Positions 5,147 through 34,669 are shown, counted from the stretch's first letter. The stretch: DNA of 64,000 nucleotides from an uncultured Bacilli bacterium (GCA_934183165.1 CAKPRZ010000004.1:5998-69997), one strand, 5' to 3'. Numbers and translations are program-made. The notes: a model not told the origin generated them from the letters alone.

Positions 5147-5164
5147 AAAAAAACATGATATAAT
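5136..5164 (+). promoter_or_regulatory. Putative promoter with extended -10 (TGaTATAAT) upstream of the ncRNA region
   Basis: tgatataat at 5156-5164. The -35 is weak. The TG extension could compensate. Confidence 0.35.
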
Positions 5165-5745
5165 GTCATAGAAATGGCGCATTATTCTAGTCAATACATT
5201 ATTACGAAGACGAGGGTAAAATATCGTTAAATAGCATACCTGTGAAGCGTCTGGTGTTTGCTTTATGTGCCCAACATAGGGTGAATGCTGGATTTGAAGA
5301 ATCTATGGGCGATCGTAATGGCATACGGCAACCGACCCATTTATTCGTGGAGACCTATTCTTGTGGGAAGATCTTTGGATACTTCTTACGACTTAGGATT
5401 AAACCTATTTTGTAGTGAAAGCTATGGATAGAGTAGCTAGACTTGAGTGATAATAGGGAATAGAGACAACTAAAATTTGGCGTACACCATTATTTTAGTA
5501 TCGCTACTTGAAACTATTATTGCAAAAAAGTATAAGTAATAGGTGGTATTGTTGGGGAAAACCTCTAGAATGTAGATTGATATAGGATTGCAGTGTGCAC
5601 TAAGTGGCAATCAAGTCATAGATAAGGAGACTTACTATTTATTCTTTTAAAAGGGAACTGCTATACTGGTAACAGTAAGTAAGAATAAGGGAAATCCAAC
5701 TTGACCTAAGGTACAAGGTTTACTATATTAATGCCATTTCATTAA
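5150..5745 (+). ncRNA. ole: Large structured non-coding RNA, candidate OLE (ornate, large, extremophilic) RNA
   Basis: About 600 nt with no ORF above roughly 40 aa on either strand. GC is clearly higher than in the flanks (GC-rich runs such as gggcgatcgtaatggcatacggcaaccgacc). It lies immediately upstream of a small 4-TM protein gene. Confidence 0.5.
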
Positions 5746-5757
5746 TATGGTGATTAT

Positions 5758-8234: not shown

Positions 8235-10382
8235 ATGGCTACAAAAAAGAAAAAAAGAATAAATTTTAGGCTTATATTTGCTTTAATAATAAATATTGTG
8301 TTAATTGCTAGTGGAGGATATTTAGTATCTTATATTATTAAACTAAATGATATTGAAAATACTTTACGATTACTTTTTTCAATACTATTTTGTATTATTA
8401 TGTTATTACTTGTTATTTTTAACTTGAAATTCAGTTCAAAATCAAAAAAAATCAAATATGGATTTTCGATATTATTTACATTACTTATAATAGCAGTTTC
8501 TATTTTTGCTAATTATAATTTGAGTAAAGTATTTACAACACTTAATAAATTAACTAGTAAAAATGAGACAGTATCTATTAGTTTAGTAACATTGAAAAGC
8601 AATAATATTGCTTCTGCAGAAAAGGTTCCAAAGAATGAAAAAATCGCATCGATATCTTCTGAGGTTGTAAGTCAAATTGACGAATTAACAAGTGGTTTTT
8701 TTAAAAAATATAATATTATAAATGAAATTTCTTACTATGATGGATATTTAGAGATTTTTAGTGATTTATTTGAAGGAAAAATTAAATATGCATTTTTACC
8801 TGTTGATTATGAAACGATTTTATCATCTCATGAAAAGTATTCTGGTGATGGGGATAAATTAAAATCACTTGCTAGTTATGAGATAAAACAAAAGGCAGAA
8901 CAAACAAAACAAAAAAGTGTTTTAGAGCCATTTACAGTATTGTTAATGGGTGTAGATACGTTATCTTCATCATATAATGCTGATACTCTTTTGGTTGTTA
9001 CATTTAACCCTAAAACATTATCTGCTACTATGCTTAGTATTCCACGTGATACTTATACAACTATTGCATGTACTAATAAAAAACACAAAATCAATTCATC
9101 TGGTTGGAGTGGTGATAAATGTGTAATTAAAACAGTTGAATCTTATATAGGTATTGATATAGATTATTATTTTAAAGTTAACTTCAAGGGTGTTGTTGAA
9201 CTGGTTGATTTACTTGGTGGTGTTGAAGTAGATGTGCCTTATTCATTCTGCGAACAAAATAGTAGCCGTAAATGGGGTAAAAACACAATTTATGTTGATA
9301 AAGGAGTACACAAATTAAATGGAGAACAAGCTTTAGCGCTTACTAGAAATAGACATTATTGGCCTAATAAATGTAGTAAAAAATATACAACTGAAGGAGT
9401 AAGAAGCGACTTTACTAGAGGACAAAATCAACAATTAGTGTTTAAAGCAATGTTAAATGAAGTAAAGAAAATAAATAATATTAATACAATATATAAAATG
9501 TTAGATTCACTTGGTAATAATATGGTTACTAATATGTCAACAGATACAATTTTATCTTTATATAATGTTGGAAAAGAAATATTAATAAAAATGAATTCAG
9601 GTGATAGAGATATATCACAGTTGATTAATATTCAAAAACTTAAATTTACAAGTTATACAAAAACTATAAGAGTAGGCAATTTAAATTTATCTATGGTTAT
9701 AAATCATGATAATAGTGTTAAAGTAGTAACTGATGCTATGAAAGTTAATTTGGGTTTAAAAGAAGCAAAAGTTATTAAAACGTTTGAATTTGATATAAAT
9801 AATGGATATGAAGAAACGGTTATAGGTAGTAAAGTGTATGGGGGAAGTACTATAGATACTGATGATAATGAGGCTTTATTACCTAACTTCGTTAGTAAAA
9901 CTGCTGACTATGTAGAAGAGTGGTGTAATAAAAACAATGTAAAACTAAGAATACAATACAAAAATGTAACTAGTGCTAGGTATTCTGATGGAGAAGTTCT
10001 ATCACAAACAATAAAGCCTAACACAAGGATTTCTAGTATTAAAACATTAAGTATAACAGTTGCAAAAGTAACAGAAGAAATAGAAAAAGATGAACAACAG
10101 GAACCGGTAAAAGAAACGTTTACCTATAAAAAATGTTTGGAAGAATCGTATAAAAATGATTCAAGATGTTTAGTTTCAAATTATGTTGGTAAAGATCTTT
10201 CAGTATTTAAATCTTGGATAAATAAAATTAATTTGGGACTTAAAGTTGATTATATAGAAAACAGTAAATCTGATAAACCAGCTAATACTATAATTAGTCA
10301 GAATATTTCAGGAGTTAGCATATATGAGTTAAATAATAGTGGTAATGTTTTAGAAATAACATACTCTACAAAAGAAGGATAA
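8235..10382 (+). CDS. LCP family (LytR-CpsA-Psr) cell-wall glycopolymer ligase with long C-terminal extension
   Basis: TM at the N-terminus. LCP core (VLLMGVDT..DTLLVVTFNPKT..LSIPRDTYT..YFKVNFKGVVELVDLLGGVEVDVP). Start chosen at the ATG after RBS aggagg. The listed ORF starts 21 nt earlier. Confidence 0.85.
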   Translation: MATKKKKRINFRLIFALIINIVLIASGGYLVSYIIKLNDIENTLRLLFSILFCIIMLLLVIFNLKFSSKSKKIKYGFSILFTLLIIAVSIFANYNLSKVFTTLNKLTSKNETVSISLVTLKSNNIASAEKVPKNEKIASISSEVVSQIDELTSGFFKKYNIINEISYYDGYLEIFSDLFEGKIKYAFLPVDYETILSSHEKYSGDGDKLKSLASYEIKQKAEQTKQKSVLEPFTVLLMGVDTLSSSYNADTLLVVTFNPKTLSATMLSIPRDTYTTIACTNKKHKINSSGWSGDKCVIKTVESYIGIDIDYYFKVNFKGVVELVDLLGGVEVDVPYSFCEQNSSRKWGKNTIYVDKGVHKLNGEQALALTRNRHYWPNKCSKKYTTEGVRSDFTRGQNQQLVFKAMLNEVKKINNINTIYKMLDSLGNNMVTNMSTDTILSLYNVGKEILIKMNSGDRDISQLINIQKLKFTSYTKTIRVGNLNLSMVINHDNSVKVVTDAMKVNLGLKEAKVIKTFEFDINNGYEETVIGSKVYGGSTIDTDDNEALLPNFVSKTADYVEEWCNKNNVKLRIQYKNVTSARYSDGEVLSQTIKPNTRISSIKTLSITVAKVTEEIEKDEQQEPVKETFTYKKCLEESYKNDSRCLVSNYVGKDLSVFKSWINKINLGLKVDYIENSKSDKPANTIISQNISGVSIYELNNSGNVLEITYSTKEG

Positions 10383-10386
10383 AAAA

Positions 10387-10411
10387 AGTACTGATAAATT
10401 TCAGTACTTTT
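10387..10411. terminator. Bidirectional terminator between convergent genes
   Basis: agtactga-taaatt-tcagtact hairpin flanked by A/T tracts on both sides. Confidence 0.65.
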
Positions 10412-10417
10412 AAAATG

Positions 10418-11044
10418 TTATTTTAAATTGCTTGCTTTTACAACTTCCATTGTTTTATCGTTTTTAGCTACAACAACTTGATATTTGCTTGGATAACCTA
10501 AATCCTTTTTATATTTTATATCCATATCAATATAATATGCATCGGATAATGTCTGTTTGTTATATTTAAAACTATTTTTGTTTGTTTTACTAATGGTTAC
10601 TTCAATAACTTCTGGTAATTCTTGTTTTCTATCACCATATACGTTACTTTGTATAGAACTATACATTCCACTCTGTGCTATTGATATAAAATCATCTTGA
10701 TAACTTTTATATACGAATTGGATACCACCAATATCACTACTTGTTAATTTATTTGATAAAGTAAATAAGTCAGTTACAAATAATTGGGCAACTTTTTTTG
10801 CGTAATCTTCTTCAACAACTGGATTCTTTTGTAAAATGTCTTTTAATTCATCAAATAGTGATTTCATATATTTTGTAGAATTGCTTTTTAAACTATAATC
10901 GTAGTTACTAATGTTATCTACTACAGTTACTTTTTTTCCACTACCTGTTGTTTCCTTTAATCTAGTATAAATTATATAACTTGTTCCTATAAACAGTATT
11001 ATAATAACTAATATTATTATTACTTTAAATATCTTCTTTCCCAT
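10418..11044 (-). CDS. Hypothetical membrane-anchored protein
   Basis: N-terminal TM (KVIIILVIIILFIGTSYIIY). It is the only convincing minus-strand gene in the first 48 kb. Confidence 0.6.
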   Translation of the reverse strand: MGKKIFKVIIILVIIILFIGTSYIIYTRLKETTGSGKKVTVVDNISNYDYSLKSNSTKYMKSLFDELKDILQKNPVVEEDYAKKVAQLFVTDLFTLSNKLTSSDIGGIQFVYKSYQDDFISIAQSGMYSSIQSNVYGDRKQELPEVIEVTISKTNKNSFKYNKQTLSDAYYIDMDIKYKKDLGYPSKYQVVVAKNDKTMEVVKASNLK

Positions 11045-18392: not shown

Positions 18393-18468
18393 ACAAAAAA
18401 GAAGCTGTCCCCCTGAGAACAGCTTCATAAAAAAGAATAAAAAGGGGTTGGCTAGTGTGATACTAGCG

Positions 18469-20674: not shown

Positions 20675-20784
20675 GCGTGGTGGTAATCATCATGCATTGA
20701 GCACACTTACGATGATATAATGTGAGTGTGAATTCAACCAAAACCCCCTGAAATTCCCCTCGAGAGAGGGGAATACTTTTGTTT
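20675..20784 (+). ncRNA. Candidate small RNA (promoter-to-terminator unit, about 110 nt)
   Basis: Bounded by the candidate promoter above and a terminator (ttcccctc-gaga-gaggggaa plus tactttt gttt, 20754-20784). Locally GC-enriched. No plausible ORF. Contains the CCCCCTGA motif. Confidence 0.3.
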
Positions 20785-20962
20785 ATAAGGAATTTTTAAC
20801 TATTTTTGATTTATCTAGATACCATACTAGATATTAAACATTATATTTAGATACCAATAATATGGTATTTTTTTGATAAACTTATATTTTAATATTGTAA
20901 AGTGGACAATTTTTTTGGAAAATGGTAGAATTAAAGTATAATTAATAGTAAAAAATGAAGAA

Positions 20963-21262
20963 ATGCTTTTCTATTTTTCTAAAGATAAATATGCAAATAA
21001 ATCCAGTAAAGATTTAAAAGACTTAATTGAACAATATAAAGAATCAGAAACTGATTTATTACAATTTGATTTTAATAAAATAGAAAAAGCAAGAGAAGTA
21101 GGATTTATAATTTTTGATGTAGCAGAACATTTAAAATTACTTAAGGATAATAAAAGTAAATACACTTTAGAACAAGCAGTAGAAGAATTAAATAAAGCAC
21201 AAGAATTACTTAATCCAATTATGGATAAATATGATTATAGTAAATTACCAAAGAAAAATTAA
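20963..21262 (+). CDS. Hypothetical small protein (first gene of a 7-gene operon)
   Basis: 99 aa charged protein, no recognised domain. It is followed at 23 nt by the next gene. Confidence 0.5.
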   Translation: MLFYFSKDKYANKSSKDLKDLIEQYKESETDLLQFDFNKIEKAREVGFIIFDVAEHLKLLKDNKSKYTLEQAVEELNKAQELLNPIMDKYDYSKLPKKN

Positions 21263-21285
21263 ATTGTAAGAAAGTAGGATTATAA

Positions 21286-21810
21286 GTGAAATTATATATA
21301 GTTAGACATGGTGAAGTACCTCATAATGTGTTAAAAATGTATAATAATGTAAATGAAGATTTAACAGATAATGGGATTATGCAGGCATTAGAATTAAGAG
21401 ATAAAATTAAAGATATAAAGTTCGATATGGTTATTTCATCTCCACTTTTAAGAACAATACATACTGAAAACATACTAACATATTATGATGATAGTATTAT
21501 AACTGATGATAGGTTAAGTGAAAGGGGTTGTGGAGATTTAAGTGGTAAACCAAATGAGTGTACAAATAGAGAAGAATATTGGAATTATTATACAGAAATG
21601 CAATATGGGACAAGTGAAAATATTCAAGAGTTTTTTAAAAGAGTATATAACTTTTTAGACGAACTAAAACAAAAAGATTATGAAAGTGTATTAATAGTGG
21701 CACATAGTGGAGTATCAAAGGCATTCAGTGGATATTTTGAAGGAATACAAGATGGTAAGTTTTTAAATAGAGGACTTAAAAATTGTGAAATAAAGATGTA
21801 TGAACTGTAG
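21286..21810 (+). CDS. Histidine phosphatase family protein (phosphoglycerate-mutase-like)
   Basis: GTG start. N-terminal RHGE motif (LYIVRHGEVPHN). Later AHSG motif (LIVAHSGV). Confidence 0.75.
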   Translation: MKLYIVRHGEVPHNVLKMYNNVNEDLTDNGIMQALELRDKIKDIKFDMVISSPLLRTIHTENILTYYDDSIITDDRLSERGCGDLSGKPNECTNREEYWNYYTEMQYGTSENIQEFFKRVYNFLDELKQKDYESVLIVAHSGVSKAFSGYFEGIQDGKFLNRGLKNCEIKMYEL

Positions 21811-21818
21811 GTATTAAT

Positions 21819-22379
21819 ATGGATTTTAATTATGTTGATTTTCTATCATCCAGTGATAAAAAATCTATAAAAAAATTGTATTATGAATCATTCGATAAAG
21901 AGGAAAGATTTCCATTTTGGTTACTAAAAAAGTGTTCTAAAGAAAAGAGTGTAAAGTTTAATGTAATATATAGCAAAGATAAAGTAATTGGTTTTCAATA
22001 CATTATTGAGTATGATAATATTGCTTATTTAATGTATTTTGCCATTGAAAAAAATCAAAGAAATAATGGCTATGGTTCAGAAATGTTAAAAAAGTTAAAT
22101 AGAAGTTATAAAAATGTTTTATTGTGTATTGAAAAATCAAATGAACAAATATCCGATATTAAATATAAAAGAAAACAATTTTATTTAAGAAATGGATTTG
22201 TTGGTACTAATAAGTATATTGTTGATAATAATGTTGAATATGAATTATTGTGTAATAATAGTAATTTAAATATAACTAAAGAAAAATTAGAAAAAAGATA
22301 TACAATGATGACAAGTTCCAAAATATTAAAATTTATAATAAGTAAAATTTTTAATGTTTATAATATTAAATTGAAGTAG
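21819..22379 (+). CDS. GNAT family N-acetyltransferase
   Basis: Acetyl-CoA binding motif NQRNNGYGSEML (Q/R-x-x-G-x-G/A). Confidence 0.6.
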   Translation: MDFNYVDFLSSSDKKSIKKLYYESFDKEERFPFWLLKKCSKEKSVKFNVIYSKDKVIGFQYIIEYDNIAYLMYFAIEKNQRNNGYGSEMLKKLNRSYKNVLLCIEKSNEQISDIKYKRKQFYLRNGFVGTNKYIVDNNVEYELLCNNSNLNITKEKLEKRYTMMTSSKILKFIISKIFNVYNIKLK

Positions 22380-22387
22380 GTGATAGT

Positions 22388-23803
22388 ATGCATATAGGTA
22401 TAGATATAGATAATGTTTTATCGAATTTCAATGAGATATTATTAAATAAATATATTGAGCATGATAAAAGTATTAATGGAAAAGGTATAGTTAATCAAGA
22501 TGTGTATATTAGAGATATGTTTAATTGGGATAAAGAATATGAAGAAAAATTTTACAAAGAAAATATTGAGTATTTTGCAAGCCTATTTGAACCGATTGAA
22601 GAATGTTCTAAATATGTAAAATTATTAAAAGAAGAAGGAAATACAATTTATATCATTAGTGGTCGAGACAATGGTGAATATTCTAACCCATATAAAATGA
22701 CCATTGATTGGTTAAAAAAATATGATATTGTTTATGATAAATTATTTTTAGTAGATGCTTATAATAGTCATTCAAAAACAGAAATATGTTTAGAATACAA
22801 TATTGATGTAATGATAGATGATTCTAAAAGAATGTGTAAGGACATAAAGGATAATGGTATTAGAGCATTACTTATGGATACACCATATAATAGAGATACA
22901 AATGAATTTGAAAGAGTTAATTCATGGAAAGAAATTTATAACAAATTATCTAATAAAAAAATTAATGTGATACTTGATACAGATACTTATAATGAATGTG
23001 ATGACCAATTTGCATTATCATATTTAATTAAGTCACAAGATATGTTTAATATTGAGGCAATTACAGTAGCACCATATTCTCATACAAAAAGAGATGTAAA
23101 AGTAATAGATGGACAAGAGTTGAGTTATAATGAAATTTTAAAAATATGTAATTGGTTAAATTTTGATACCATTGATAAAGTATTTAAAGGATCAATGGAC
23201 TATATTCAAAATGGATATGATGAAAATAATGATGCAGTAAATAAAATAATTGAAGTGGCGCTTAAAAACGATAAAACTTATATATTAGGAATTGGAGCTA
23301 TAACTAATATTGCTTTAGCAATAAAAAAAGAACCTAAGATAATTGATAGAATAGAAATCATTTGGTTAGGTGGAAATGAAATAGAATATAAAGATAATTT
23401 AGAATATAATTTCAAACAAGATATAGAGGCTGTAAAAATAGTGTTTGATTCTACAGTGAAAATGACTATACTACCTTGCAAAAATGTAGTATCAGATTTA
23501 AGAATAGATATAGCTGAATTAAAAAGTAAATTAGATAATAGGAAAGAATTAAATAAATATTTAATTGAGAGATTTTATAATGATGGATATCATGGAATAC
23601 AAGAAACAAGAGTAATATGGGATATATCAGTAATAGCATATATGATAAATAAAAATTGGTTTGAAACAGAAAAAATTAGTTGTCCCAATATCAAGGAAGA
23701 TAGTTCTTATGAATTAACTGATAATAGACATAGTATAACTTTTATAACTAAATTAGATAGAGATAGAATATATGAAGATTTATTTAGAAAGTTAGGAGTA
23801 TGA
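22388..23803 (+). CDS. Fusion protein: N-terminal 5'(3')-deoxyribonucleotidase (HAD, NT5C-like) plus C-terminal nucleoside hydrolase (IU-NH family)
   Basis: N-terminal HAD motif I (MHIGIDIDNVL) and NT5C-like region. The C-terminal half starts with VILDTDTYNECDDQFAL, the DxDxxxDD nucleoside-hydrolase signature. Confidence 0.7.
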   Translation: MHIGIDIDNVLSNFNEILLNKYIEHDKSINGKGIVNQDVYIRDMFNWDKEYEEKFYKENIEYFASLFEPIEECSKYVKLLKEEGNTIYIISGRDNGEYSNPYKMTIDWLKKYDIVYDKLFLVDAYNSHSKTEICLEYNIDVMIDDSKRMCKDIKDNGIRALLMDTPYNRDTNEFERVNSWKEIYNKLSNKKINVILDTDTYNECDDQFALSYLIKSQDMFNIEAITVAPYSHTKRDVKVIDGQELSYNEILKICNWLNFDTIDKVFKGSMDYIQNGYDENNDAVNKIIEVALKNDKTYILGIGAITNIALAIKKEPKIIDRIEIIWLGGNEIEYKDNLEYNFKQDIEAVKIVFDSTVKMTILPCKNVVSDLRIDIAELKSKLDNRKELNKYLIERFYNDGYHGIQETRVIWDISVIAYMINKNWFETEKISCPNIKEDSSYELTDNRHSITFITKLDRDRIYEDLFRKLGV

Positions 23804-23806
23804 ATT

Positions 23807-24415
23807 ATGAGATTAACAAGCAAAGATGCAAGGAATCTATTAGAAGAAGAAAGAAAAAAATCAAATGATGATAGATGGATAGAACATTGCTTATGTGTTG
23901 GTAATGCTGCAGGTAAAATAGCAGAAGCATTAAATGAAAAAGGTTATAATATAGATATAGATAAGACAATTACTCTAGGTTATTTACACGATATTGGTAA
24001 GTATAATGGAGAATCACATGGACATGTTATGAGAGGATATGAATATTTAAAAGAAAGAGGATATGATGATGAATATTGTAATATATGTTTAACACATTCT
24101 TATTTAAATAATGATATAGTGTGTACTGCTGGGGGAGTCCCTAATCCAAATGATAATCCTTTTTTAACAGATTTTATAAAAAATCATGAATATACTATAG
24201 AAGAAAAATTAATAAATTTATGTGATTTGATGTGTCCACAAGGGAACGAAGTATTTACAATTGATAAAAGATTAATTGATATTATGATTAGAAGAGGAGC
24301 TTATTCAAATACACAATATCATATTAAAGAAACTTACAAACTGAAAGAATATTTTGATAGTTTATTAGGATATAATCTCTATGATTTATTTCCTGAAATA
24401 AAAGAAAATTTGTAG
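23807..24415 (+). CDS. HD/HDIG domain phosphohydrolase
   Basis: Motifs HCLCVGNAAGKIAE and LGYLHDIGK. Confidence 0.7.
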   Translation: MRLTSKDARNLLEEERKKSNDDRWIEHCLCVGNAAGKIAEALNEKGYNIDIDKTITLGYLHDIGKYNGESHGHVMRGYEYLKERGYDDEYCNICLTHSYLNNDIVCTAGGVPNPNDNPFLTDFIKNHEYTIEEKLINLCDLMCPQGNEVFTIDKRLIDIMIRRGAYSNTQYHIKETYKLKEYFDSLLGYNLYDLFPEIKENL

Positions 24416-24423
24416 GTGATATT

Positions 24424-25017
24424 ATGCGAATAGGAATAGATATAGATGGCGTATTAACCGACATAGAACAATGGCAGTTAGATTATGGAAGTAAGTTTTA
24501 TTTTGAAAAATATGGTAAAGAAATACAAAATAACGAAGGATATGAAACAACAGAAATATTTAAAGTTGATAGTAAATTAGATGATGAGTTTTGGACTGAG
24601 TATTTTAAAGATTATTCGATAAATGTCGATGTTAGAAAATTGGCTAGTGAAGTAATTAAAAAACTAAAACAAGATGGTAATGAAATTTATATTATTACCG
24701 CAAGAGGTAGCTTTTTATCACATTCTGCAAATGTAATGCTTTTTGAAGAAAATAAAAACATTGTTTTAGAATGGCTTAGAAAAAATGAAATTGAATATGA
24801 CAAAATAATATTTAGCCCAGAAGATAAACTTAGTATATGTTTAGAAAATAATATTGATGTAATGATAGAAGATAAAGTTGACAATATAAACAAAATATCA
24901 ACAAGGATTCCAGTTATATGTTTTCATGCAGGATATAACAAAAATTGTAAAGGTAACAATATTTTCAGATGTTATAGTTGGTATGATATATACAGTAAAA
25001 TAAATAGTATTAAATAA
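24424..25017 (+). CDS. 5'(3')-deoxyribonucleotidase-like HAD phosphatase (paralog of N-domain of 22388 gene)
   Basis: MRIGIDIDGVL HAD motif I. Organisation collinear with the N-terminal half of the 22388 gene (IYIITARG, DVMIEDK). Confidence 0.7.
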   Translation: MRIGIDIDGVLTDIEQWQLDYGSKFYFEKYGKEIQNNEGYETTEIFKVDSKLDDEFWTEYFKDYSINVDVRKLASEVIKKLKQDGNEIYIITARGSFLSHSANVMLFEENKNIVLEWLRKNEIEYDKIIFSPEDKLSICLENNIDVMIEDKVDNINKISTRIPVICFHAGYNKNCKGNNIFRCYSWYDIYSKINSIK

Positions 25018-25036
25018 CATTTGTTGAGGGATATAG

Positions 25037-25813
25037 ATGGAAGTTATTAATAATGAAAATAAAAAAATAATAGATATTGAACTTTTAGAATTATTAAGTG
25101 AAAAAGGTTCAGAAATGACTGTATATAATGATGAAAATTTTGTTTATAAAATATTTAAAAAAGATTATAAACTTGGACATAAAAGTATTGAAGAATTAAA
25201 TTATCTATCATCTATAAAAACATCAAGAATTTTGATGCCTGAATCACTAATATTTAACAATGATGAATTAATTGGTTATACCATGATTTATATAAAAAAT
25301 GAAAAAGATATACATAATGATACAATGGCAAATTTATTAAATGAATTAACGATTATAAAACAAGATATTGATATTCTTAATAAATTATGTGTAAGGTTAA
25401 TAGATATAAATAAATCTAATATTGTTTATAACGGTAAATTATATTTGATTGATCCAGGTAATTATTATATTAATGATGTAAATGATTTATTAATATATTA
25501 TCAAAATAAAGAGATAACTGAAGAAGAAAAACAAAATCTTATTATAAATTGGAATTATAATCAACTTAATAAGTTAATGCATGAATTATTATTTATGAAT
25601 AATAGTGATATTGATTTTTATTTATTAAGAAAAATAATAGAGTTTTTTGAAATTGAAAGAAAAAAAGATGGTTTAATATATGATGCTGGTATTTATCAAA
25701 AATATTTTGATAAGGATTTAACTGTTAGAGAGGCAATTAAAAAATTTGTATCAAACTATATTAAAGTTGATGAAGAAGAGAAAAAAATGGTATTATCACT
25801 TTTTAAAATGTAG
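25037..25813 (+). CDS. Atypical protein-kinase-like fold protein (small-molecule/nucleoside kinase candidate)
   Basis: Gly-loop-like GSEMTVY with VAIK-like Lys in VYKIFKK. Catalytic-loop-like LIDINKSNIVYNG. DFG-like LIDPGN. Confidence 0.45.
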   Translation: MEVINNENKKIIDIELLELLSEKGSEMTVYNDENFVYKIFKKDYKLGHKSIEELNYLSSIKTSRILMPESLIFNNDELIGYTMIYIKNEKDIHNDTMANLLNELTIIKQDIDILNKLCVRLIDINKSNIVYNGKLYLIDPGNYYINDVNDLLIYYQNKEITEEEKQNLIINWNYNQLNKLMHELLFMNNSDIDFYLLRKIIEFFEIERKKDGLIYDAGIYQKYFDKDLTVREAIKKFVSNYIKVDEEEKKMVLSLFKM

Positions 25814-25828
25814 TAATGAGGTGTTATT

Positions 25829-27044
25829 GTGAAAAGATTATTAAGGATTGGTTTTGATTTATCATTGTTATCGTTTATACCAATAATATATTGATTTCTA
25901 CTTGGGATAATAGTTGATAAGAATTTAATTAATATATTTACTTTAACTTATCCATTACAATTTATATATTATATAATTAAATCTATATTTTCTACTGGGG
26001 CTAATATAAGTAAAGAAAAAGATAAAAATAAAGATGCGGTAATGTCTGGCTTAATATTAGGAACAATTGTTTCTATAATTATTTTTACTGTAATTCTATT
26101 AAATGTTGATAATTATATTAGTTTTATGAATATGGATATAAGTACATATAAAAACTTTACTATATATTCAATATTACAACTATTTATTTGTTTAGAATTT
26201 GCAATGATGCAAGATAAGTTATATTATGAAAAAAAATAAATTAGCAAATAAGCATTCATTAGTATTTAATTTATTAAATTTTATATTATTAATTGGAACA
26301 TCTTTAATAACAAAAAATCAAATTATTATAATTTCAACAACATTAATTCCATTAGCGATATATACTTTGTATATTTATATTAAAAACGGTAATAAGTTTA
26401 AATTTAATATTAATGTATTAAAGTGTATAAAATATGGTTCAGTTGAGTTATTCAATAATATTGCATTCTTTTTAATATTCTTATTTGGATTATCTAATGT
26501 CTTAGAATATGGAGAAATGTATGCAACTGCTTTGACTTTTATAGCATTAATAACTGATACACAATGGGATACATTTGATGCTATAAAAGAAGCAGCAACA
26601 ATAGATATTAGTAAAAGAAAGTTTAATTATATACAACATAGAAATAATGCTTATAAATTATTAGGAATACTATTTGGAACAAGTTTAATGATGTTTTCAT
26701 TCTTATTTGGATTTTATGATTTAGATTTTAAAATTACTATGATATATTTTTCTTTTGAAATAGTAAATTTCTTAATATATCCAATATATAGAATTAAAAC
26801 TTGTTATTTGCAATTAGAATATTCAGCTTTTAAAATTACATCAAATAAGATAATAGCATCAATACTTAGAATGGTCATGTCATTATTAAAAACGCCATTT
26901 TGTACAGGAATAGGACAAGTATGTTCATCAGTTTATCAATTTATAACAGTTAGTATAATGTTTAATCATAATTTTAAAGTTGATAAAACAGGTTGTGTTA
27001 TTAAAAAAAAATCAATACTGAATAATGACACTATGACATTATAA
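25829..27044 (+). pseudogene. Fragmented multi-TM membrane protein gene (possible disrupted flippase/transporter)
   Basis: Three consecutive short hydrophobic ORFs in different frames (25829-25894, 26042-26239, 26226-27044) separated by in-frame stops. Together they look like one polytopic membrane protein. Confidence 0.3.
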
Positions 27045-27204
27045 ATGAGAGTAGGGTACTCACAAACAATATGTCATTGTGTCATTTAATAATAAAAATA
27101 ATGAAATATGTGATATAATAGTATATATAAAAAGAAGCGCTAGTACAGGCTTATGTTTATAAGTTTTTGTATTGGCGTTTTTTTCGTAGTAAGGAAGTGA
27201 TAAA

Positions 27205-29262
27205 ATGAATTTAAATTTAGAAAATGGATATACTGTTACTTTACCTTCAAAAGGAAAGCATAATATATATTATGGACCAAATAAAATAGGTAAAACTCAG
27301 ATATCTCGTTCGATGAAAAAATATTATGAAGAAATAAGTGAAAAAGTTCTTTTGTTTAATGAAAATATTTTAAGTGATATGATTATTCAAAGTAGTGAAG
27401 ATATTAATTCTTTTGAAGTAATGCCTATGGCACAAGAGTATAATAAATACTATAATAATATGCAAAAAAGTAAAGAAAAATTATCAATGAAAAATAGTTT
27501 AAAGGATTTATGCTTAGTTAATACAAAAAAGGCATTTCAAGGGTTTGAAAAAATAAGTGAGTATATTAATGATGATAATACTTATTCTTATAATGGTGAT
27601 GATTTATTACCATTTTATAGTCAAGATGATATCAAGGATATGTATAAGCCAAAAAAGGTAAATATGAATATTTTTGAAATAATTGATAATCTGAAAAAAG
27701 ATAATATCAAAATAATACCAGATAATGTTAAGAAAATTGTTGAGCATGATATATATAGTATTCAATTGAAAATAAATCAAGACCCAGATAAATACAAGAA
27801 TTGTCCTGTTTGTTTTTCACCTATTTGTCAAGAAAATTTAGATAAGATAAGAGAAAGCATTGAAAATGGTTCAATCGAAAAAGAATTGCAATTATCAATA
27901 TTATTCTATTTAGACAATAAAAGTGATATTTTAAGGAATAAAATGTCTGAGATATTATTGTGCGAATCATATGAATCATTTGAAAAAGATTTTAAGTTGG
28001 ATGTTGAAAAATCTATTATTTCTTATTTAAGTAATCAGTATGATAAAAAGGATGTTATAAATTATAAAGAAAATAAAACAAAAGTTGAAGAAATATTAAA
28101 TAAAACAAAGGATTTTAAAATAACTGAAAATATTGAATTAAGTAATTATATAAAAAATAAATTAAAGAATCATACGGTTTATAAAAATACAGATATAGAA
28201 ATAAAAATTAGTGATGGAAAGTTAAAAGTTTTAAATAGTCAAGTTGAATATGACAAAATGTCTAAATCGGAACAAAATTATTTTAAATTTCTTTATTTTG
28301 ATATTTTAGTTCATCAAAAGATTTTAGAAGGAAAATTGCATATAATTATTGATGATCCATTTGATAGTTATGATGATATTTATGTCCAAGATTCAATAGC
28401 AATAATAACAAAATTAATAAATGAACATATTGAAGATATTGATACAATTGATATTTTTTCTCACAGTATGTATATTCTTGATTTATATGATTCATTGAAA
28501 AAAATATATAATAAATTTAATATTTACTGGATGGATCAAATTGGTTTAACAAAAGAAATAAATATATTTGAAGATGGCTATCTTTTGTTTGAAAAAATAG
28601 ATATAAATCCTTACGATTATGGAATTATATTGAAGATTAGCGATAAAATGGTTGATAAATATTCATTGATTGCATTTGCTGCACTTTTAAGAAATGAAAT
28701 AAATGTAGAGCGTTTGTTATTTAAAAATAATAGCAATGGTGAACTTTCTGATGTGAAAAATAAAGTAGAAGAACTATATAATAAAATATCAGAATCAATC
28801 GATCATGTGAGGCAGGAAATATCAATAATTGAATTAAATAACATTATTAATGAAATATTTTATTTTGGCTTAAACGATAACGAAATACAGAATGTGTCAT
28901 CTTTATTTGATGATATTTCAAAAGATTATGTTGATATAGATATAAAAGCAAAAACTGGTTCTGGAAATGTTGTATCGGTTCCTAAAAATGATATTTGTTA
29001 TATATTAATTTATAAAATATTATTTGGTTTGAAAATTAGAAGATTATTAGAAAAGAAGGTTTATGATATTGTACAAGAAGACTACACTGAAGTGTGGGAT
29101 TTAATTGAAAAAATACCAAATACTCCATTGTATGATTATTATAATTTATATAAATACATAATTAATTCGTTTAATCATTCTTCATCAAGAGTTGTTCCAC
29201 CAATTTTTGTGTATAGTTTCAAATCATTACGAGAAATGTATGAAGAATTACAAGCATTGTAG
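27205..29262 (+). CDS. SMC/Rad50-like P-loop ATPase with CxxC zinc-hook-like insert and uncharacterised C-terminal domain
   Basis: Walker A GPNKIGKT near the N-terminus. CPVCFSPIC about 170 aa later. Walker B-like IIIDDPFDSYDD around aa 380. About 300 aa of unknown C-terminal region. Confidence 0.55.
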   Translation: MNLNLENGYTVTLPSKGKHNIYYGPNKIGKTQISRSMKKYYEEISEKVLLFNENILSDMIIQSSEDINSFEVMPMAQEYNKYYNNMQKSKEKLSMKNSLKDLCLVNTKKAFQGFEKISEYINDDNTYSYNGDDLLPFYSQDDIKDMYKPKKVNMNIFEIIDNLKKDNIKIIPDNVKKIVEHDIYSIQLKINQDPDKYKNCPVCFSPICQENLDKIRESIENGSIEKELQLSILFYLDNKSDILRNKMSEILLCESYESFEKDFKLDVEKSIISYLSNQYDKKDVINYKENKTKVEEILNKTKDFKITENIELSNYIKNKLKNHTVYKNTDIEIKISDGKLKVLNSQVEYDKMSKSEQNYFKFLYFDILVHQKILEGKLHIIIDDPFDSYDDIYVQDSIAIITKLINEHIEDIDTIDIFSHSMYILDLYDSLKKIYNKFNIYWMDQIGLTKEINIFEDGYLLFEKIDINPYDYGIILKISDKMVDKYSLIAFAALLRNEINVERLLFKNNSNGELSDVKNKVEELYNKISESIDHVRQEISIIELNNIINEIFYFGLNDNEIQNVSSLFDDISKDYVDIDIKAKTGSGNVVSVPKNDICYILIYKILFGLKIRRLLEKKVYDIVQEDYTEVWDLIEKIPNTPLYDYYNLYKYIINSFNHSSSRVVPPIFVYSFKSLREMYEELQAL

Positions 29263-29506
29263 AATTCTAGATACTAAAACTAGATACTAAATCTCAAAAA
29301 TAAAGTTATTCTTATAAACTTTGGTAAATTATGATAAAAGAAAAAGCCTTAATTTATAAGACTTTAACTAAATATTAAATTATTACGAACTGATATTAAT
29401 ATTTCCCCCTGAAGGAGCCGAAAGACTCCATTTTTGTTTGCTGTAAACTAAGACGAATAACTTTTTAATATTTATGTTATAATGTTTATATATTAGGAGG
29501 TTCCAA

Positions 29507-29911
29507 ATGAAAGTAATAAGTATTAAAGAACCATTTGCAACTTTGATAGCTAACGGTATTAAAAAAATAGAAACAAGAAGTTGGAAAACTAATTATCGTG
29601 GTGAATTATTTATACATGCTAGTGGAAAGCAACTTGCCAAAGAATTTATTAAAAATGATTTTGTATTAGATTTAATAAAAAATATGGACATGAATTATGG
29701 TAATATTATTTGTAAATGTAATTTAGTTGACTGCATCTATATGGATGAACAATTTTTAAATTATATAAAGCAAAATCAAATAGAATATAATCTAGGCGAA
29801 TATAAACTAGGAAGGTATGCATGGATTATAGAAGATGTAGAACCTATTTATCCAATATCTGCAAAGGGACGATTAAACCTTTGGAATTTTGATGATATAC
29901 AAAATAAATAA
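29507..29911 (+). CDS. ASCH domain protein (PUA-like fold)
   Basis: MKVISIKEPFATLIANGIKKIETRSW...GELFIHAS matches the ASCH pattern. RBS aggagg. Confidence 0.7.
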   Translation: MKVISIKEPFATLIANGIKKIETRSWKTNYRGELFIHASGKQLAKEFIKNDFVLDLIKNMDMNYGNIICKCNLVDCIYMDEQFLNYIKQNQIEYNLGEYKLGRYAWIIEDVEPIYPISAKGRLNLWNFDDIQNK

Positions 29912-30559: not shown

Positions 30560-33500
30560 ATGAGTGAAAAGTTAACATTAGATGAATTTAATTCTATAAT
30601 AAAAAAACTAAATGATGAGTCTTATTCTATCGATGAAAAATTATCTTTTCAAGAAAAATTATTGTTATCTGATCTAAGTAATATTCCATCTACAGAGTGG
30701 GGAAAAGTAACCCTTATGACAGATGGTAATATGATCGATTTCTCTAAAACAAAAGCTAATATTGATTTTAATATATTTAAATATTTAGGAAATGGTAATT
30801 TTAAGAATTGTAATATCACTCATTTAGAAAACTTTCCCGGATATCTTAACCATTCAAATTTTGATGAAAAAGCTATGAAAGATAATAAAGAATTGTTTTT
30901 ATCAAATCTTTTTTCAGATGAATTCAAAGACAAATATTATTCTAGAATGATAACAATGGATGATTTGTCTTTATTAAATGATGCACAAATAAACGAATTA
31001 AAAGTCAAAAATATTCCTCACTATGTAGGATCAGCGGAAATTAACATTCAATTACTTGAAACACTAGGAATAGAAAAAATTCTAAAAATATATAAAACTT
31101 CTAAAAATGATTATGATGCAATCAATTCTATTTACAATAATTACGCTTCTATATTATATGAAGAAGATAAAAATATTGTTGATGAACTAAAAAACACTCA
31201 GGCAACTAGAATAAAAAATGTATTATTTACAAAGTTAAAACAATATTTAAGCAAAGATGATTATGAAGGTATTGATTTAGAGATGCTCCCTAAGATGTTT
31301 TTAGAGGAATATATTAAAAAATTTAATTTAGATGATGAATTAATAAATGCTTTTGGAATTGATAATGTTTTAAAACTCGAAAATGAAACAAAAATATTTT
31401 CTATATGCAAAAATTTGAGTTTTGATGAAGATGATCTTGAAAATTTCCAAAATGGTAATCTATCTTATGAAGAATTTAGAGATGCATTTGCCGATTTACT
31501 TAATAAAGCGCGACTAGTAGGAAGATATAAAATAAGTAAGGAATATGATTATGATTTAGAAAAAATGGTAACTAAAGATAATAGTTATAGTTTTATTTTT
31601 GGAAAATTTAGACAGGATTTTCCAGATATTTTTATTGATGATAAAGCACCAGATAAATTAAAGAAAGAATTTTATGAAGGAAAACTAACTTTTAATTGTC
31701 TACTTAATCATGAATACATACCATACATTAAAACAAAAAATCTTTCTAAATTGTTTAATTTTTCTTCCAATAAATCAAGTGAAAAATTTGTTTATGATTA
31801 TACTAGAAAATTTGGTAATAGTAAATTTATAAGTTTGGTAAAAAAATATAATATTACAGACTTAAAGATTTTAAATTCTGAAAAATCAGATTTTGATTTT
31901 AAGAGTAAAGAAGGTTTTGAAAAATACTTACGTGATATTCTATATGACAAATTATGCCAAAACGATGATTTACCAGATACGACTAGAAAAACTATTCTTG
32001 CTAACAATGATTTTAGAAATGAACATCCAAATGTAGTTATTGATCTAGAAGCATTGTCAAATTTAAATATTCCTAATAACGATTATGAATTATTGAAGGA
32101 AAAGATTTCATATAACTATTTAACTGCCAATGATGTTATGCATTATCCAGAACTTGTATCTTTATTAAAAGGTAAAGATTTAACTACAGTATTAAGTATT
32201 AGCAACACGATTCATCTATTGAAAAAATTAAATGAAGATGAAATATTGAACTTAATAGCAAAATATGGAAAGTCTTTTAATTATGCATTTAAAATAATAT
32301 CCGAAAACTATGATAGTGAACTAGAAAATCTATCTTATGAAGATATTGAAAATAAAATAGAAAAAACTATTGTTGATGAATACAAAAATGGTAAATATTT
32401 TTATAATGAGGATTCTCCAGAAGTAATAAAAGAAAAATATCCTGAATTATATTTGGATTCTTCTGCTCCTGATGAATTAAAAAATAGATTTTATAATATA
32501 GCTAATCAAAAACTTACTTTTCCTGACTTACGTGCTCATAAAGAGTGGTTACCCTACTTAGAAGGAAAATCTGTTATAACAGCGTTACTTAAAAGCTGTC
32601 GTGATCCTGAGATATTAAAAAAATATTTTGATTTGTTTGGTAATGAAAAAGCATTAAAACTTGGAATAAATAAATATGAAACAGTATTACCTATGTTACA
32701 ATTTGATAATGTAGAATTGATGAAAAAATGGTACGATAGAACAGGTCAAAGATTTTTACCTGATGCTGCTATAATAAATAATTTTGATTTAGCTGAAGCT
32801 GATAAATTTTTTAGATTTGGTTCTAATTGGACTAAATTGATGCAACTAAATAATTATTCTGTTGATTACGAAACAAAAGATGGTGTATTAAAATTAGCTT
32901 ATTCTTTTGGAGTCTTCGATGGGGATGAAAAAGGATTAAAATCGACTGTTGATATTTTGACTCGAATACCTAGAAAATTAAATCCTAATTATAGTTCTAC
33001 AATGAAAAAACTCATAAATCAAGCAAACAATGATGTTTTATTTAAATCTTTTTTAAATAAAGCAATAGAAGAAGAAAATGTACAAGTTAATTCTGATGAA
33101 CCTTTGCTTGATCAAATTTATAGAAAAAATGATGATAATTCATATACTTTAACGATTAACCAACAAAACTGTCCAAAAACTACTGGTTTAATTCGTAACC
33201 TAATGGCACAGTATGAAGATTTACCAGTATTACATTATCTTAAGGTTCATAGCTTGTTTAGTGGCTTTAGTATGAAATATGATAAAGATTTTAGAGATTT
33301 CCTTGTTAATAATATAGATGAGATTTTATCTAGTCCAGAATATACAACTTATTTGTCAAAAATACAAAGACAATTTTCAGAAATAAAGGCTATAAATAGT
33401 AATAGAAAGTTAACGCTAGAGTTAGCAAAAAATTATGTTATAAGTAATAAGTATATTGGTATTCAACCAGGAAATGAGTTGGCAGCAGATATATCAGCAA

Positions 33501-34669
33501 CGGCTGGTTATAGTCAAACTGACTTTGATGTTTTACAAGAAATATATAATTATGGTAAACAAAGAACGTTTAGTAGTATTCCTAGAATAGAGGGACAAAA
33601 AGATGATTATAAATACGAAATGTTAAGACTAGATGATGCTCTTGCAATGGCAATTGGTGCTTTTACTGATTGTTGCCAAGAGTTAGGAGACGTTGCTGAA
33701 ATGTGTATGGAGCATAGTATGGTTGATAAAAATGGTCGTGTTTTTGTAATTAAAGATAGTGATAATAATATAGTAGCTCAAAGTTGGGTATGGAGAAATA
33801 AAAGTGTATTATGTTTTGACAACATTGAAATTCCTAGCAAAGCCTTTAATAGAGCATTAAAACTAAGAAGTGAACATAGAGACTTATTTTCACAAGAAGT
33901 ATATGATGTATATAAGCAAGCAGCAATAGAACTTATGAATAAAGATGAAGAAAAATATGCTAAATTGCTTTCTGAAGGATTCATTAGTAAAGAACAATAT
34001 GATGGATTACATTTGAGTAAAGTTACAGTTGGACTTGGCTACAATGATATTGCTAATACCATAAAAAAGAATGCAAAATTGGAAAAAGATCATATAACAA
34101 GGCCACTTCCTTTTGATGCTCCTGTGAAATTAAAGAATCAATTATATGCAAATGATTCAACAACTCAATTTATATTGAATGAGAATAAAGATGAATTTAA
34201 TTATTCTGGAGATACATTGCCTATTTATAGTGATGAATATCAGGAATATGATGATAGCAATTTTAACCCTAAACTGCTACTAACTCTTAATAAATTAGAA
34301 ATGTTAACTAAAAACAAATATAGTGATTTAGAAACAGATGTTGTAGCAGATAATTCTAACATAGTTAGTTCAATTGCTGAAAACTATAATTTAGATCCAT
34401 CAAGTACTAAAATAGTTATGAATCCTAATTTTGCAATTATTTATGCTTGTGAAGATGATAATTTAAAAATTGGTGATTTGTTATACAATAATAAGCTTGG
34501 TGATGATAAAGTTTTAGTAATGCAAATCAAATTAGCTTTAGATCAAATAAGTAAAGATAAAAAAATAGATATATCTAAATTAACGGAAAATCAATTAGAA
34601 GTATTCAATGATGCTAATGCTATAGGAAACGAAATAGAAATAGAAAAAGGATTAGGAAATTCAAAGTAA
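30560..34669 (+). CDS. Very large (1369 aa) cytoplasmic-type orphan protein with internal repeats
   Basis: No signal peptide or TM. Repeated roughly 45-aa units (F..DFPDIFIDDKAPDKLKKEFYEGKLTFNCLLNHEYIPY and YPELYLDSSAPDELKNRFYNIANQKLTFPDLRAHKEWLPY). Cys/His cluster FTDCCQELGDVAEMCMEHS near residue 1040. Confidence 0.7.
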   Translation: MSEKLTLDEFNSIIKKLNDESYSIDEKLSFQEKLLLSDLSNIPSTEWGKVTLMTDGNMIDFSKTKANIDFNIFKYLGNGNFKNCNITHLENFPGYLNHSNFDEKAMKDNKELFLSNLFSDEFKDKYYSRMITMDDLSLLNDAQINELKVKNIPHYVGSAEINIQLLETLGIEKILKIYKTSKNDYDAINSIYNNYASILYEEDKNIVDELKNTQATRIKNVLFTKLKQYLSKDDYEGIDLEMLPKMFLEEYIKKFNLDDELINAFGIDNVLKLENETKIFSICKNLSFDEDDLENFQNGNLSYEEFRDAFADLLNKARLVGRYKISKEYDYDLEKMVTKDNSYSFIFGKFRQDFPDIFIDDKAPDKLKKEFYEGKLTFNCLLNHEYIPYIKTKNLSKLFNFSSNKSSEKFVYDYTRKFGNSKFISLVKKYNITDLKILNSEKSDFDFKSKEGFEKYLRDILYDKLCQNDDLPDTTRKTILANNDFRNEHPNVVIDLEALSNLNIPNNDYELLKEKISYNYLTANDVMHYPELVSLLKGKDLTTVLSISNTIHLLKKLNEDEILNLIAKYGKSFNYAFKIISENYDSELENLSYEDIENKIEKTIVDEYKNGKYFYNEDSPEVIKEKYPELYLDSSAPDELKNRFYNIANQKLTFPDLRAHKEWLPYLEGKSVITALLKSCRDPEILKKYFDLFGNEKALKLGINKYETVLPMLQFDNVELMKKWYDRTGQRFLPDAAIINNFDLAEADKFFRFGSNWTKLMQLNNYSVDYETKDGVLKLAYSFGVFDGDEKGLKSTVDILTRIPRKLNPNYSSTMKKLINQANNDVLFKSFLNKAIEEENVQVNSDEPLLDQIYRKNDDNSYTLTINQQNCPKTTGLIRNLMAQYEDLPVLHYLKVHSLFSGFSMKYDKDFRDFLVNNIDEILSSPEYTTYLSKIQRQFSEIKAINSNRKLTLELAKNYVISNKYIGIQPGNELAADISATAGYSQTDFDVLQEIYNYGKQRTFSSIPRIEGQKDDYKYEMLRLDDALAMAIGAFTDCCQELGDVAEMCMEHSMVDKNGRVFVIKDSDNNIVAQSWVWRNKSVLCFDNIEIPSKAFNRALKLRSEHRDLFSQEVYDVYKQAAIELMNKDEEKYAKLLSEGFISKEQYDGLHLSKVTVGLGYNDIANTIKKNAKLEKDHITRPLPFDAPVKLKNQLYANDSTTQFILNENKDEFNYSGDTLPIYSDEYQEYDDSNFNPKLLLTLNKLEMLTKNKYSDLETDVVADNSNIVSSIAENYNLDPSSTKIVMNPNFAIIYACEDDNLKIGDLLYNNKLGDDKVLVMQIKLALDQISKDKKIDISKLTENQLEVFNDANAIGNEIEIEKGLGNSK

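Follow-up and report, generated by a model that had tools for sequence, protein, structure and literature searches.

A compact seven-gene array in an uncultured gut Bacilli lineage as probable mosaic cargo of a decayed mobile element, with a fused nucleotidase/nucleoside hydrolase and an HD protein as its linked pair

The stretch of DNA analysed here, 64,000 nt from an uncultured Bacilli bacterium (GCA_934183165.1 CAKPRZ010000004.1:5998-69997; hereafter the window, at its full length), carries seven open reading frames (ORFs) at 20963-25813 on the + strand, named O1 to O7, exactly at the coordinates where a first-pass annotation of the same DNA had placed them. That annotation read the array as a single operon serving either a dedicated nucleotide or nucleoside pathway or a nucleotide-depleting anti-phage module. 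Its domain assignments all hold, those for O2-O6 in profile searches and that for O7 in AlphaFold2 modelling with Foldseek comparison. The genes are as follows.

20963-21262, + strand: O1, 99 aa
21286-21810, + strand: O2, 174 aa, histidine phosphatase
21819-22379, + strand: O3, 186 aa, GNAT acetyltransferase
22388-23803, + strand: O4, 471 aa, fusion of an NT5C nucleotidase with an IU-type nucleoside hydrolase (NT5C::IU)
23807-24415, + strand: O5, 202 aa, HD/HDIG phosphohydrolase
24424-25017, + strand: O6, 197 aa, stand-alone NT5C/HAD nucleotidase
25037-25813, + strand: O7, 258 aa, protein-kinase-like fold

The genes are separated by 23, 8, 8, 3, 8 and 19 nt, in agreement with the 3-23 nt reported previously. 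Three of the junctions read TAG-GTGATAnT-ATG or similar, which places the ribosome-binding site over the stop codon of the preceding gene. A terminator scan found no terminator-like site between 20775 and 29082 and hence none inside the array. Two overlapping sigma-70-like promoter matches lie 5' of O1.

20903-20942, + strand: TGGACA-17-TAGAAT with TG, and TTGGAA-16-TATAAT

Both are consensus matches only, in an AT-rich region that holds no excess of promoter-like sites. The array has the usual marks of an operon, with genes on one strand, short gaps, coupled translation signals and no internal terminator, which suggests that O1-O7 are co-transcribed and translationally coupled. Nearly all long ORFs of the window lie on the + strand with compact spacing, 18 of the 46 same-strand gaps are 25 nt or less and the median gap is 43.5 nt, so that six consecutive short gaps are suggestive of co-transcription and not extraordinary in this setting.

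The linkage of the array in other genomes was counted in the 80 best species loci with the fusion gene, which were searched with all window proteins; a homologue was scored when it lay within 6 kb of the fusion, and 64 of the 80 loci are informative in having enough downstream sequence. The species loci with a homologue are as follows.

O5 (HD): 63 of 80
O2-like His-phosphatase: 21 of 80
Membrane protein D (a gene 3' of O7, described below): 17 of 80
O6-like NT5C: 16 of 80
O3-like GNAT: 8 of 80
O1: 4 of 80, the four closest only
O7: 0 of 80

In 47 of the 64 informative loci the HD gene follows the fusion within 3 kb, at a median gap of 66 nt. The linkage also holds in reverse: of about 40 informative metagenome loci located through their HD homologues, about 30 have the fusion or its hydrolase domain directly upstream. 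On these counts only O4 and O5 appear to form a consistently linked, evolutionarily stable unit, and no contigs other than those of the same strain showed the full seven-gene arrangement. The first-pass annotation had treated the seven genes as one co-occurring unit and had named scattered homologues in other genomes as the finding that would speak against a seven-gene pathway; apart from O4 and O5, scattered homologues are what is found, and neither the seven-gene unit nor the dedicated seven-gene pathway is sustained.

The genes around the pair vary from locus to locus. His-phosphatase genes often abut the HD gene with overlapping stop and start codons, and in seven species loci (including L080, 11428-11967, and L095, 1456-1968) a gene for a LigT-like 2H phosphoesterase lies 8-9 nt 3' of the fusion, in the slot that the HD gene occupies in the window. 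Other recurrent neighbours of the fusion or the HD gene are MFS and YgjV-type transporters, HAD, PHP, NUDIX and NADAR-HD genes and several kinds of GNAT, and the neighbourhoods of the fusion gene often hold transporters and sugar hydrolases.

Close relatives of the window differ from it by whole genes. In the sister loci L021, L022 and L023, O4 is kept at 96-97% identity, yet O7 is missing from all three (DNA comparison), and the window interval 25007-25829, which holds O7, has no counterpart there, 15 nt standing in its place. O2 and O3 are missing together, as one unit, from L022 and L023. L021 has three additional unannotated genes between O3 and O4, and all three loci carry a different HD allele that is 55-56% identical to O5. 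Locus L148 comes from the same species as the window (flanks 98% identical), has an intact 176-aa HTH gene, and carries unrelated genes of 417 and 233 aa, followed by D3, the last gene of the region, in place of O2-O7. Such whole-gene insertions and deletions between near-identical relatives indicate that O1-O7 is evidently a strain-specific mosaic assembled gene by gene.

In loci L150-L153, from an abundant related species, copies of O4-O5 with 96-97% identity stand in a different context, followed at about 9618-10676 by a single 352-aa NT5C::GNAT fusion whose GNAT is unrelated to O3, with Fic, Abi_2, resolvase and TniB-like genes in the vicinity. Among contigs with an identical RecG (L155-L161), many stop just after recG or inside the region (in O1, at the start of O4, in O6), and sample ERZ27286955 holds both a contig with recG-O1...O6 and a contig with the HTH, 417-aa, 233-aa and D3 genes. 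The contig ends and the two arrangements in one sample suggest either strain mixtures or tandem blocks at the site.

With compact, co-directional genes throughout the window, neighbours drawn from mixed hydrolase superfamilies and a cargo that is different in every relative examined, the array might be no functional unit at all, only unrelated housecleaning hydrolases in a permissive cargo slot, co-expressed by virtue of a compact co-directional genome. This is clearly unlikely, since the adjacency of O4 and O5 is too regular, and reciprocal, for such a collection, the abutting His-phosphatase and HD genes share overlapping stop and start codons in other species, and ribosome-binding sites overlap stop codons inside O1-O7 itself.

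O4 encodes a single chain with an NT5C domain at residues 3-187 and an IU_nuc_hydro domain at residues 194-462 (Pfam). The hydrolase domain (PF01156) scores 86.5 bits against a cutoff of 34.2 and covers profile positions 1-296 of 297; the NT5C domain (PF06941) scores 54 bits in O4 and 40.8 bits in O6 against a cutoff of 24.8. The N-termini of O4 and O6 have the DxD nucleophile motif (IDIDNV and IDIDGV, respectively), with DD or ED at motif IV. O4 has 4372 homologues, and among the matches listed both domains are present in 120 of 120. Its relatives occur in 388 stretches of a species-representative collection (one genome per species), which come from gut metagenome-assembled genomes titled uncultured Bacilli, Tenericutes and Clostridium sp. 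CAG:710, CAG:433, CAG:343 and CAG:575. The invariant residues of O4 are D6/D8, D144/D145, D197/D199/D205/D206, T306-N307, E339/N341 and W411-D412, of which the Asp cluster, the TN and E-x-N motifs and D412 presumably have the roles usual in the hydrolase family, the binding of calcium and ribose among them.

In its full-profile Pfam match, its TN and E-x-N motifs and the Asp after the catalytic-acid position, O4 resembles the IU-type hydrolases, such as RihA, RihB and RihC of E. coli and IU-NH of Crithidia fasciculata (PDB 1mas). It differs from them by the N-terminal HAD nucleotidase fusion, by the spacing of its Asp cluster (DTDTYNECDD, that is DxDx5DD, where IU-type hydrolases have DxDxxxDD) and by the invariant W411, which takes the place of the catalytic-acid His seen in the aligned IU-type hydrolase chain 8ctm. 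Trp at this position is typical of purine-preferring members. With the two-residue insertion in the Asp motif and Trp for the catalytic-acid His, the O4 hydrolase is not a textbook IU-NH, and it scores 30-51 bits with the RihA, RihB, RihC and UriH equivalog models of NCBIfam, the cutoffs of which are 382-459. The N-terminal domain of O4 and the O6 protein share the DxD and DD motifs with the NT5C/HAD 5'(3')-deoxyribonucleotidases and with the phosphatase domain of T4-type polynucleotide kinase; the best PHROG match is an unannotated family (phrog_420) and the HAD_PNKP match is below cutoff.

O5 matches the HD domain (PF01966, 47.8 bits against 22) and the HDIG model (TIGR00277, 37.8 against 27.6) in Pfam and NCBIfam. 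The family alignment has invariant H27, H61-D62, H97 and D140, the H...HD...H...D ligands, together with an invariant C-terminal tail, LLGYNLYxLFPEIK, and O5 appears to represent a distinct HD subfamily of its own. Its scores fall far below the cutoffs of the named HD families in NCBIfam (TIGR00295, 53 against 172; YqeK, 18 against 70). O5 shares the HD fold and the metal ligands with small nucleotide-directed HD phosphohydrolases (the 5'-deoxynucleotidase YfbR, the Ap4A hydrolase YqeK, the HD domain of PgpH, OxsA and YpgQ), with no significant match to any of them in sequence or fold. A direct sequence search of the PDB gave no match, a profile search gave only weak ones (an OxsA-like protein and 3ccg, best E 0.0095), and no fold neighbour was found by Foldseek at E of 1e-3 or less (best E 0.015). 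The nearest folds, none significant, are the PgpH HD domain, YqeK, YfbR, an OxsA-like protein, YpgQ and a small alarmone hydrolase, all of them nucleotide phosphohydrolases.

The remaining genes of the array are of more variable occurrence. O1 has no Pfam match. Window positions 20980-21261 align at 90% identity to two longer genes, the 187-aa HTH_3 gene of L022 and L023 and the 176-aa HTH gene of L148, in each case to the 3' part. O1 is thus the C-terminal-half remnant of an XRE/HTH_3 regulator from which the HTH part has been deleted, a leftover of the backbone regulator gene of a probable mobile element and no independent small protein. An HTH protein of locus L007 was considered as a further relative of O1 and rejected, since comparison showed no relationship.

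O2 matches His_Phos_1 (Pfam, E 4e-32, 112 bits against a cutoff of 21.7) and has the RHG motif and the second His. Its best NCBIfam match is alpha-ribazole phosphatase (CobC) at 98 bits, under the equivalog cutoff of 163, so O2 is not a CobC equivalog. O3 matches Acetyltransf_7 and Acetyltransf_1 (Pfam). O6 is a paralogue of the N-terminal domain of O4 with 31% amino acid identity. At the DNA level the two genes share patches of 82-92% identity (22376-22420 and 24412-24456; 22784-22822 and 24835-24873), the ribosome-binding region included, which could stem from gene conversion, or from recent and patchy recombination of the two paralogues.

O7 had been called a protein-kinase-like fold protein, a call that the structural model upholds. 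The protein has no Pfam match, to kinase models or to any other, and hence none to a named kinase family; a direct sequence search of the PDB gave chance-level matches only. The AlphaFold2 model (pLDDT 90.9, pTM 0.86) matches 636 PDB chains at E of 1e-3 or less with Foldseek, and among the matches listed 50 of 50 are protein kinases, with TM values of about 0.4-0.5. In the family alignment of 23 members K38, D123, N128 and D139 are invariant. The features expected of a kinase, a bilobal fold with Lys in beta-3, Asp and Asn in the catalytic loop and an Asp for metal binding, are thus all found, and O7 is predicted with confidence to have a protein-kinase-like fold. Its family is small and unannotated (65 clusters, all metagenomic); a profile search of 1.8 billion representatives returned 673 relatives, and no name can be transferred from these since none of 10 sampled has a Pfam family. 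Homologues with 67% identity or less stand alone in unrelated contexts, beside Bro-N genes, after smpB, or after DUF1810 and ADP-ribosylglycohydrolase genes. In L007 a homologue with 80% identity lies in a DpnII restriction-modification island, preceded only by an O6-like NT5C gene (88% to O6). From its contexts, O7 is apparently an independent cassette, unrelated to the rest of the array.

The array is part of an 8.7-kb block (20744-29412) that lies downstream of recG between direct repeats of CCCCCTGAA with a hairpin. The GC content of the block is 22.5%, compared with 27.7% and 26.6% in the flanks. The motif CCCCCTGA has three copies in the window against 0.11 expected, and the copies at 20744 and 29405 are built alike, with CCCCCTGAA, a GC hairpin with a GAGA or GAAA loop, and then TTTTGTTT. 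The two boundary sites are as follows.

20744-20785, + strand: left boundary site, attL-like; CCCCCTGAA, hairpin ATTCCCCTC-GAGA-GAGGGGAAT, TTTTGTTT
29405-29445, + strand: right boundary site, attR-like; CCCCCTGAA, hairpin GGAGCC-GAAA-GACTCC, TTTTTGTTT

Homology to L021 starts exactly at 20744 and homology to L022 and L023 stops at 29439. A site with this core and type of hairpin also stands in front of an integrase in L022 and L023; there recG and the left site are followed by the genes for a tyrosine integrase, the Mob_Pre relaxase, the AAA_25 protein and the complete HTH protein, and then by O4, the other HD allele, O6, D, D3 and the right site. L022 has a second integrase/relaxase/HTH set 3' of the right site, a tandem arrangement, and L021 has a chimeric junction, with the core between the right site's left-hand flank and the left site's right-hand flank. 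The block of the window is 90-96% identical in DNA to L022 and L023, which belong to two other species, compared with 68-72% DNA and 56-65% protein identity for recG; being far more alike than recG, the block has moved between species. No integrase or relaxase is present among the genes of the block in the window (sequence, Pfam), and the block gave no megablast match in plasmid and phage collections.

Decayed elements that keep attL and attR without the genes for integration and transfer (CIMEs), and tandem accretion of such elements, have been described (PMC5704250). Like integrative mobilizable elements and CIMEs (PMC5704250), the sister loci encode a regulator along with a tyrosine integrase and a MobV-type relaxase (Mob_Pre). 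The target is different here, an intergenic terminator-like site after recG taking the place of a tRNA gene or of the 3' end of a protein-coding gene. With intact integrase and relaxase copies in L022 and L023 and both repeats retained in the window, the block is probably a decayed integrative mobilizable element with O1-O7 as its variable cargo, which would have lost the integrase, relaxase and replication genes and kept both att-like repeats. The earlier description of an accessory-looking block bounded by shared motifs is thereby confirmed in the repeats at 20744 and 29405 and in the transferred block between them. The third copy of CCCCCTGA (18409-18416, + strand), located after a pyruvate:ferredoxin oxidoreductase gene, was considered as a block boundary and rejected, as it forms the loop of another hairpin (AGCTGT...ACAGCT) and has no flanks in common with the other two.

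The catalytic residues are conserved in O4, O5, O2 and O6, and a function can be proposed for the core on this basis. The HAD domain of O4 would dephosphorylate mononucleotides, assisted by the HD protein O5 and, in other genomes, by His-phosphatases or 2H phosphoesterases that could take care of cyclic, 2'- or 3'-phosphates, and from the resulting nucleoside the fused hydrolase would then release free base and ribose. O4 and O5 would thus be a scavenging or catabolic module of this gut Bacilli lineage, with O2, O3 and O6 as optional add-ons of like theme and O7 as an unrelated cassette at the end of the array. The combined explanation, of mosaic cargo on a decayed element with a two-gene scavenging core, is given a probability of roughly 0.55. 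Its structural and evolutionary part, comprising the mosaic cargo, the two-gene core and the decayed mobile element, is very likely, while the route from nucleotide to nucleoside to base and ribose, with its substrates and direction read from domain families, is tentative and falls somewhat short of an even chance.

A pathway dedicated to a single toxic or modified nucleotide or nucleoside, as in the first-pass annotation, would be a detoxification or salvage route with phosphatases, hydrolase, acetyltransferase and kinase acting in series. The candidate compounds are a nucleoside-analogue toxin, queuosine as such or as its 5'-phosphate, nicotinamide riboside or NMN, and an alpha-ribazole-like compound. 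Several observations would suit such a specialised substrate, namely the several unrelated GNATs beside the fusion, including the NT5C::GNAT fusion, the Trp and the two-residue insertion in the O4 active site, the best match of O2 to alpha-ribazole phosphatase, the YgjV-type and NADAR-HD neighbours of one species and, in a second species, a Q_salvage gene at a distance of 8 kb. This serial route is nevertheless rather unlikely, because only O4 and O5 are stably linked, and strains that are almost identical can do without the acetyltransferase or the kinase-like gene. Moreover, the score of O2 is far below the CobC cutoff, and no protein matches a family model with a specific substrate in Pfam or NCBIfam.

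An anti-phage or anti-plasmid module, in which the hydrolases deplete nucleotide pools and O7 or the ATPase D3 acts as sensor or regulator, appears improbable. It would be in keeping with the strain-to-strain variation of this cargo on an integrative element, with the neighbours of O7 homologues (DpnII restriction-modification, AAA_22, Bro-N, RhuM, SLFN-like helicase and ADP-ribosylglycohydrolase genes), with the P-loop and CxxC motif of D3 and with the Abi_2 and Fic genes near the O4-O5 copy of L150-L153. A search of ten proteins against PADLOC-DB 2.0 gave no significant match, however, which leaves the nucleotide-depletion module of the first-pass annotation without backing from that database; the weak matches are Cas3-HD for O5 (E 1.7e-4 and 1.1e-3) and AbiEii for O1 (E 0.0076). 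O4-O5 also occur in the 388 species-representative stretches, often beside transporters and sugar hydrolases, company with which metabolism fits better than immunity. Nucleoside hydrolases and 5'-nucleotidases act on nucleosides and monophosphates, and known depletion systems target triphosphate pools, so the substrates expected of O4-type enzymes are not those pools.

In a further, doubtful reading, the NT5C::hydrolase and the HD protein with their changing retinue are a horizontally mobile module for one special nucleoside, or a conflict or defence effector. The nucleoside could be a toxin, queuosine or a nicotinamide-riboside-type compound, and the retinue consists of the His-phosphatase, 2H phosphoesterase, GNAT and kinase-like genes. 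If true, the module would not serve general scavenging and would mark an uncharacterised function in the uncultured gut Bacilli lineage.

Several points weigh against a scavenging core carried on a decayed element. As regards the element, a search through exact copies of the RecG and ASCH proteins turned up no empty attachment site, in which recG would adjoin the downstream flank, and all contigs with an exact RecG run on into O1-O3. The limits of the element are set by two homology breakpoints and a 9-bp core, the boundary hairpin with its T-run also looks like an ordinary terminator, and the third CCCCCTGA copy differs in structure; the left site likewise resembles the terminator of recG, with 20753-20774 marked by the terminator scan. 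As regards the function, the HD, His-phosphatase and GNAT families are too broad for a substrate to be assigned from sequence. The destruction of nucleotides in the cytoplasm is not obviously useful to an organism that saves nucleotides, so that detoxification or a specialised substrate is possible, and the view of the lineage as a reduced-genome, auxotrophic group is our assumption, based on record titles. The recurrent acetyltransferases are not accounted for by scavenging, and the several unrelated GNAT forms near the fusion hint that acetylation may not be merely incidental.

The enzyme families and the kind of mobile element are known ones, and it is the O4 fusion and the O5 HD subfamily, in an uncultured gut lineage, that are unstudied. 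A search of the literature on the lineage and nucleoside salvage, and on both Pfam accessions together, found nothing relevant. The lineage is known here only from gut metagenome-assembled contigs, and the fused nucleotidase/nucleoside hydrolase with its HD partner, found in 388 species-representative stretches and apparently moving on mobile elements, offers a concrete and cheap target for biochemistry, with two proteins and standard substrates. For the inference of pathways from adjacency alone, it matters that an operon as tidy as this one can be a gene-by-gene mosaic.

Two further genes complete the block between O7 and the right boundary site.

25830-27044, + strand: D, a disrupted gene for a multi-pass membrane protein of ~397 aa, with an in-frame TGA and a frameshift in an A-run near 26228
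27205-29262, + strand: D3, 685 aa, with an N-terminal Walker-A-like GPNKIGKT and a CPVC motif

Intact 397-aa homologues of D, which has no Pfam match, adjoin the fusion gene in the 17 species loci. The in-frame TGA corresponds to TGG (Trp) in L021, and the homologues have Trp. The use of TGA as a Trp codon was considered and rejected, since 3 of the 47 long ORFs end in TGA, none has an internal TGA and L021 has TGG. D3 has no match in Pfam, NCBIfam, PADLOC or PHROGs, and in the window, L022, L023 and L148 alike no other gene follows it ahead of the right boundary site.

Elsewhere in the window, the ASCH-domain gene at 29507-29911 (+ strand), just outside the block, matches the phage family phrog_3193 (E 6e-37), and a 1369-aa ORF with no Pfam match follows it at 30560-34669 (+ strand). 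GC skew is positive in nearly every 1-kb interval and the cumulative skew climbs steadily, as expected if the window lies wholly on one replication arm. The sole Rfam match in the window is an OLE (ornate large extremophilic) RNA (RF01071) at 5158-5753 (+ strand), which scores 357.7 bits against a gathering threshold of 50 and spans model positions 1-616 of 616.

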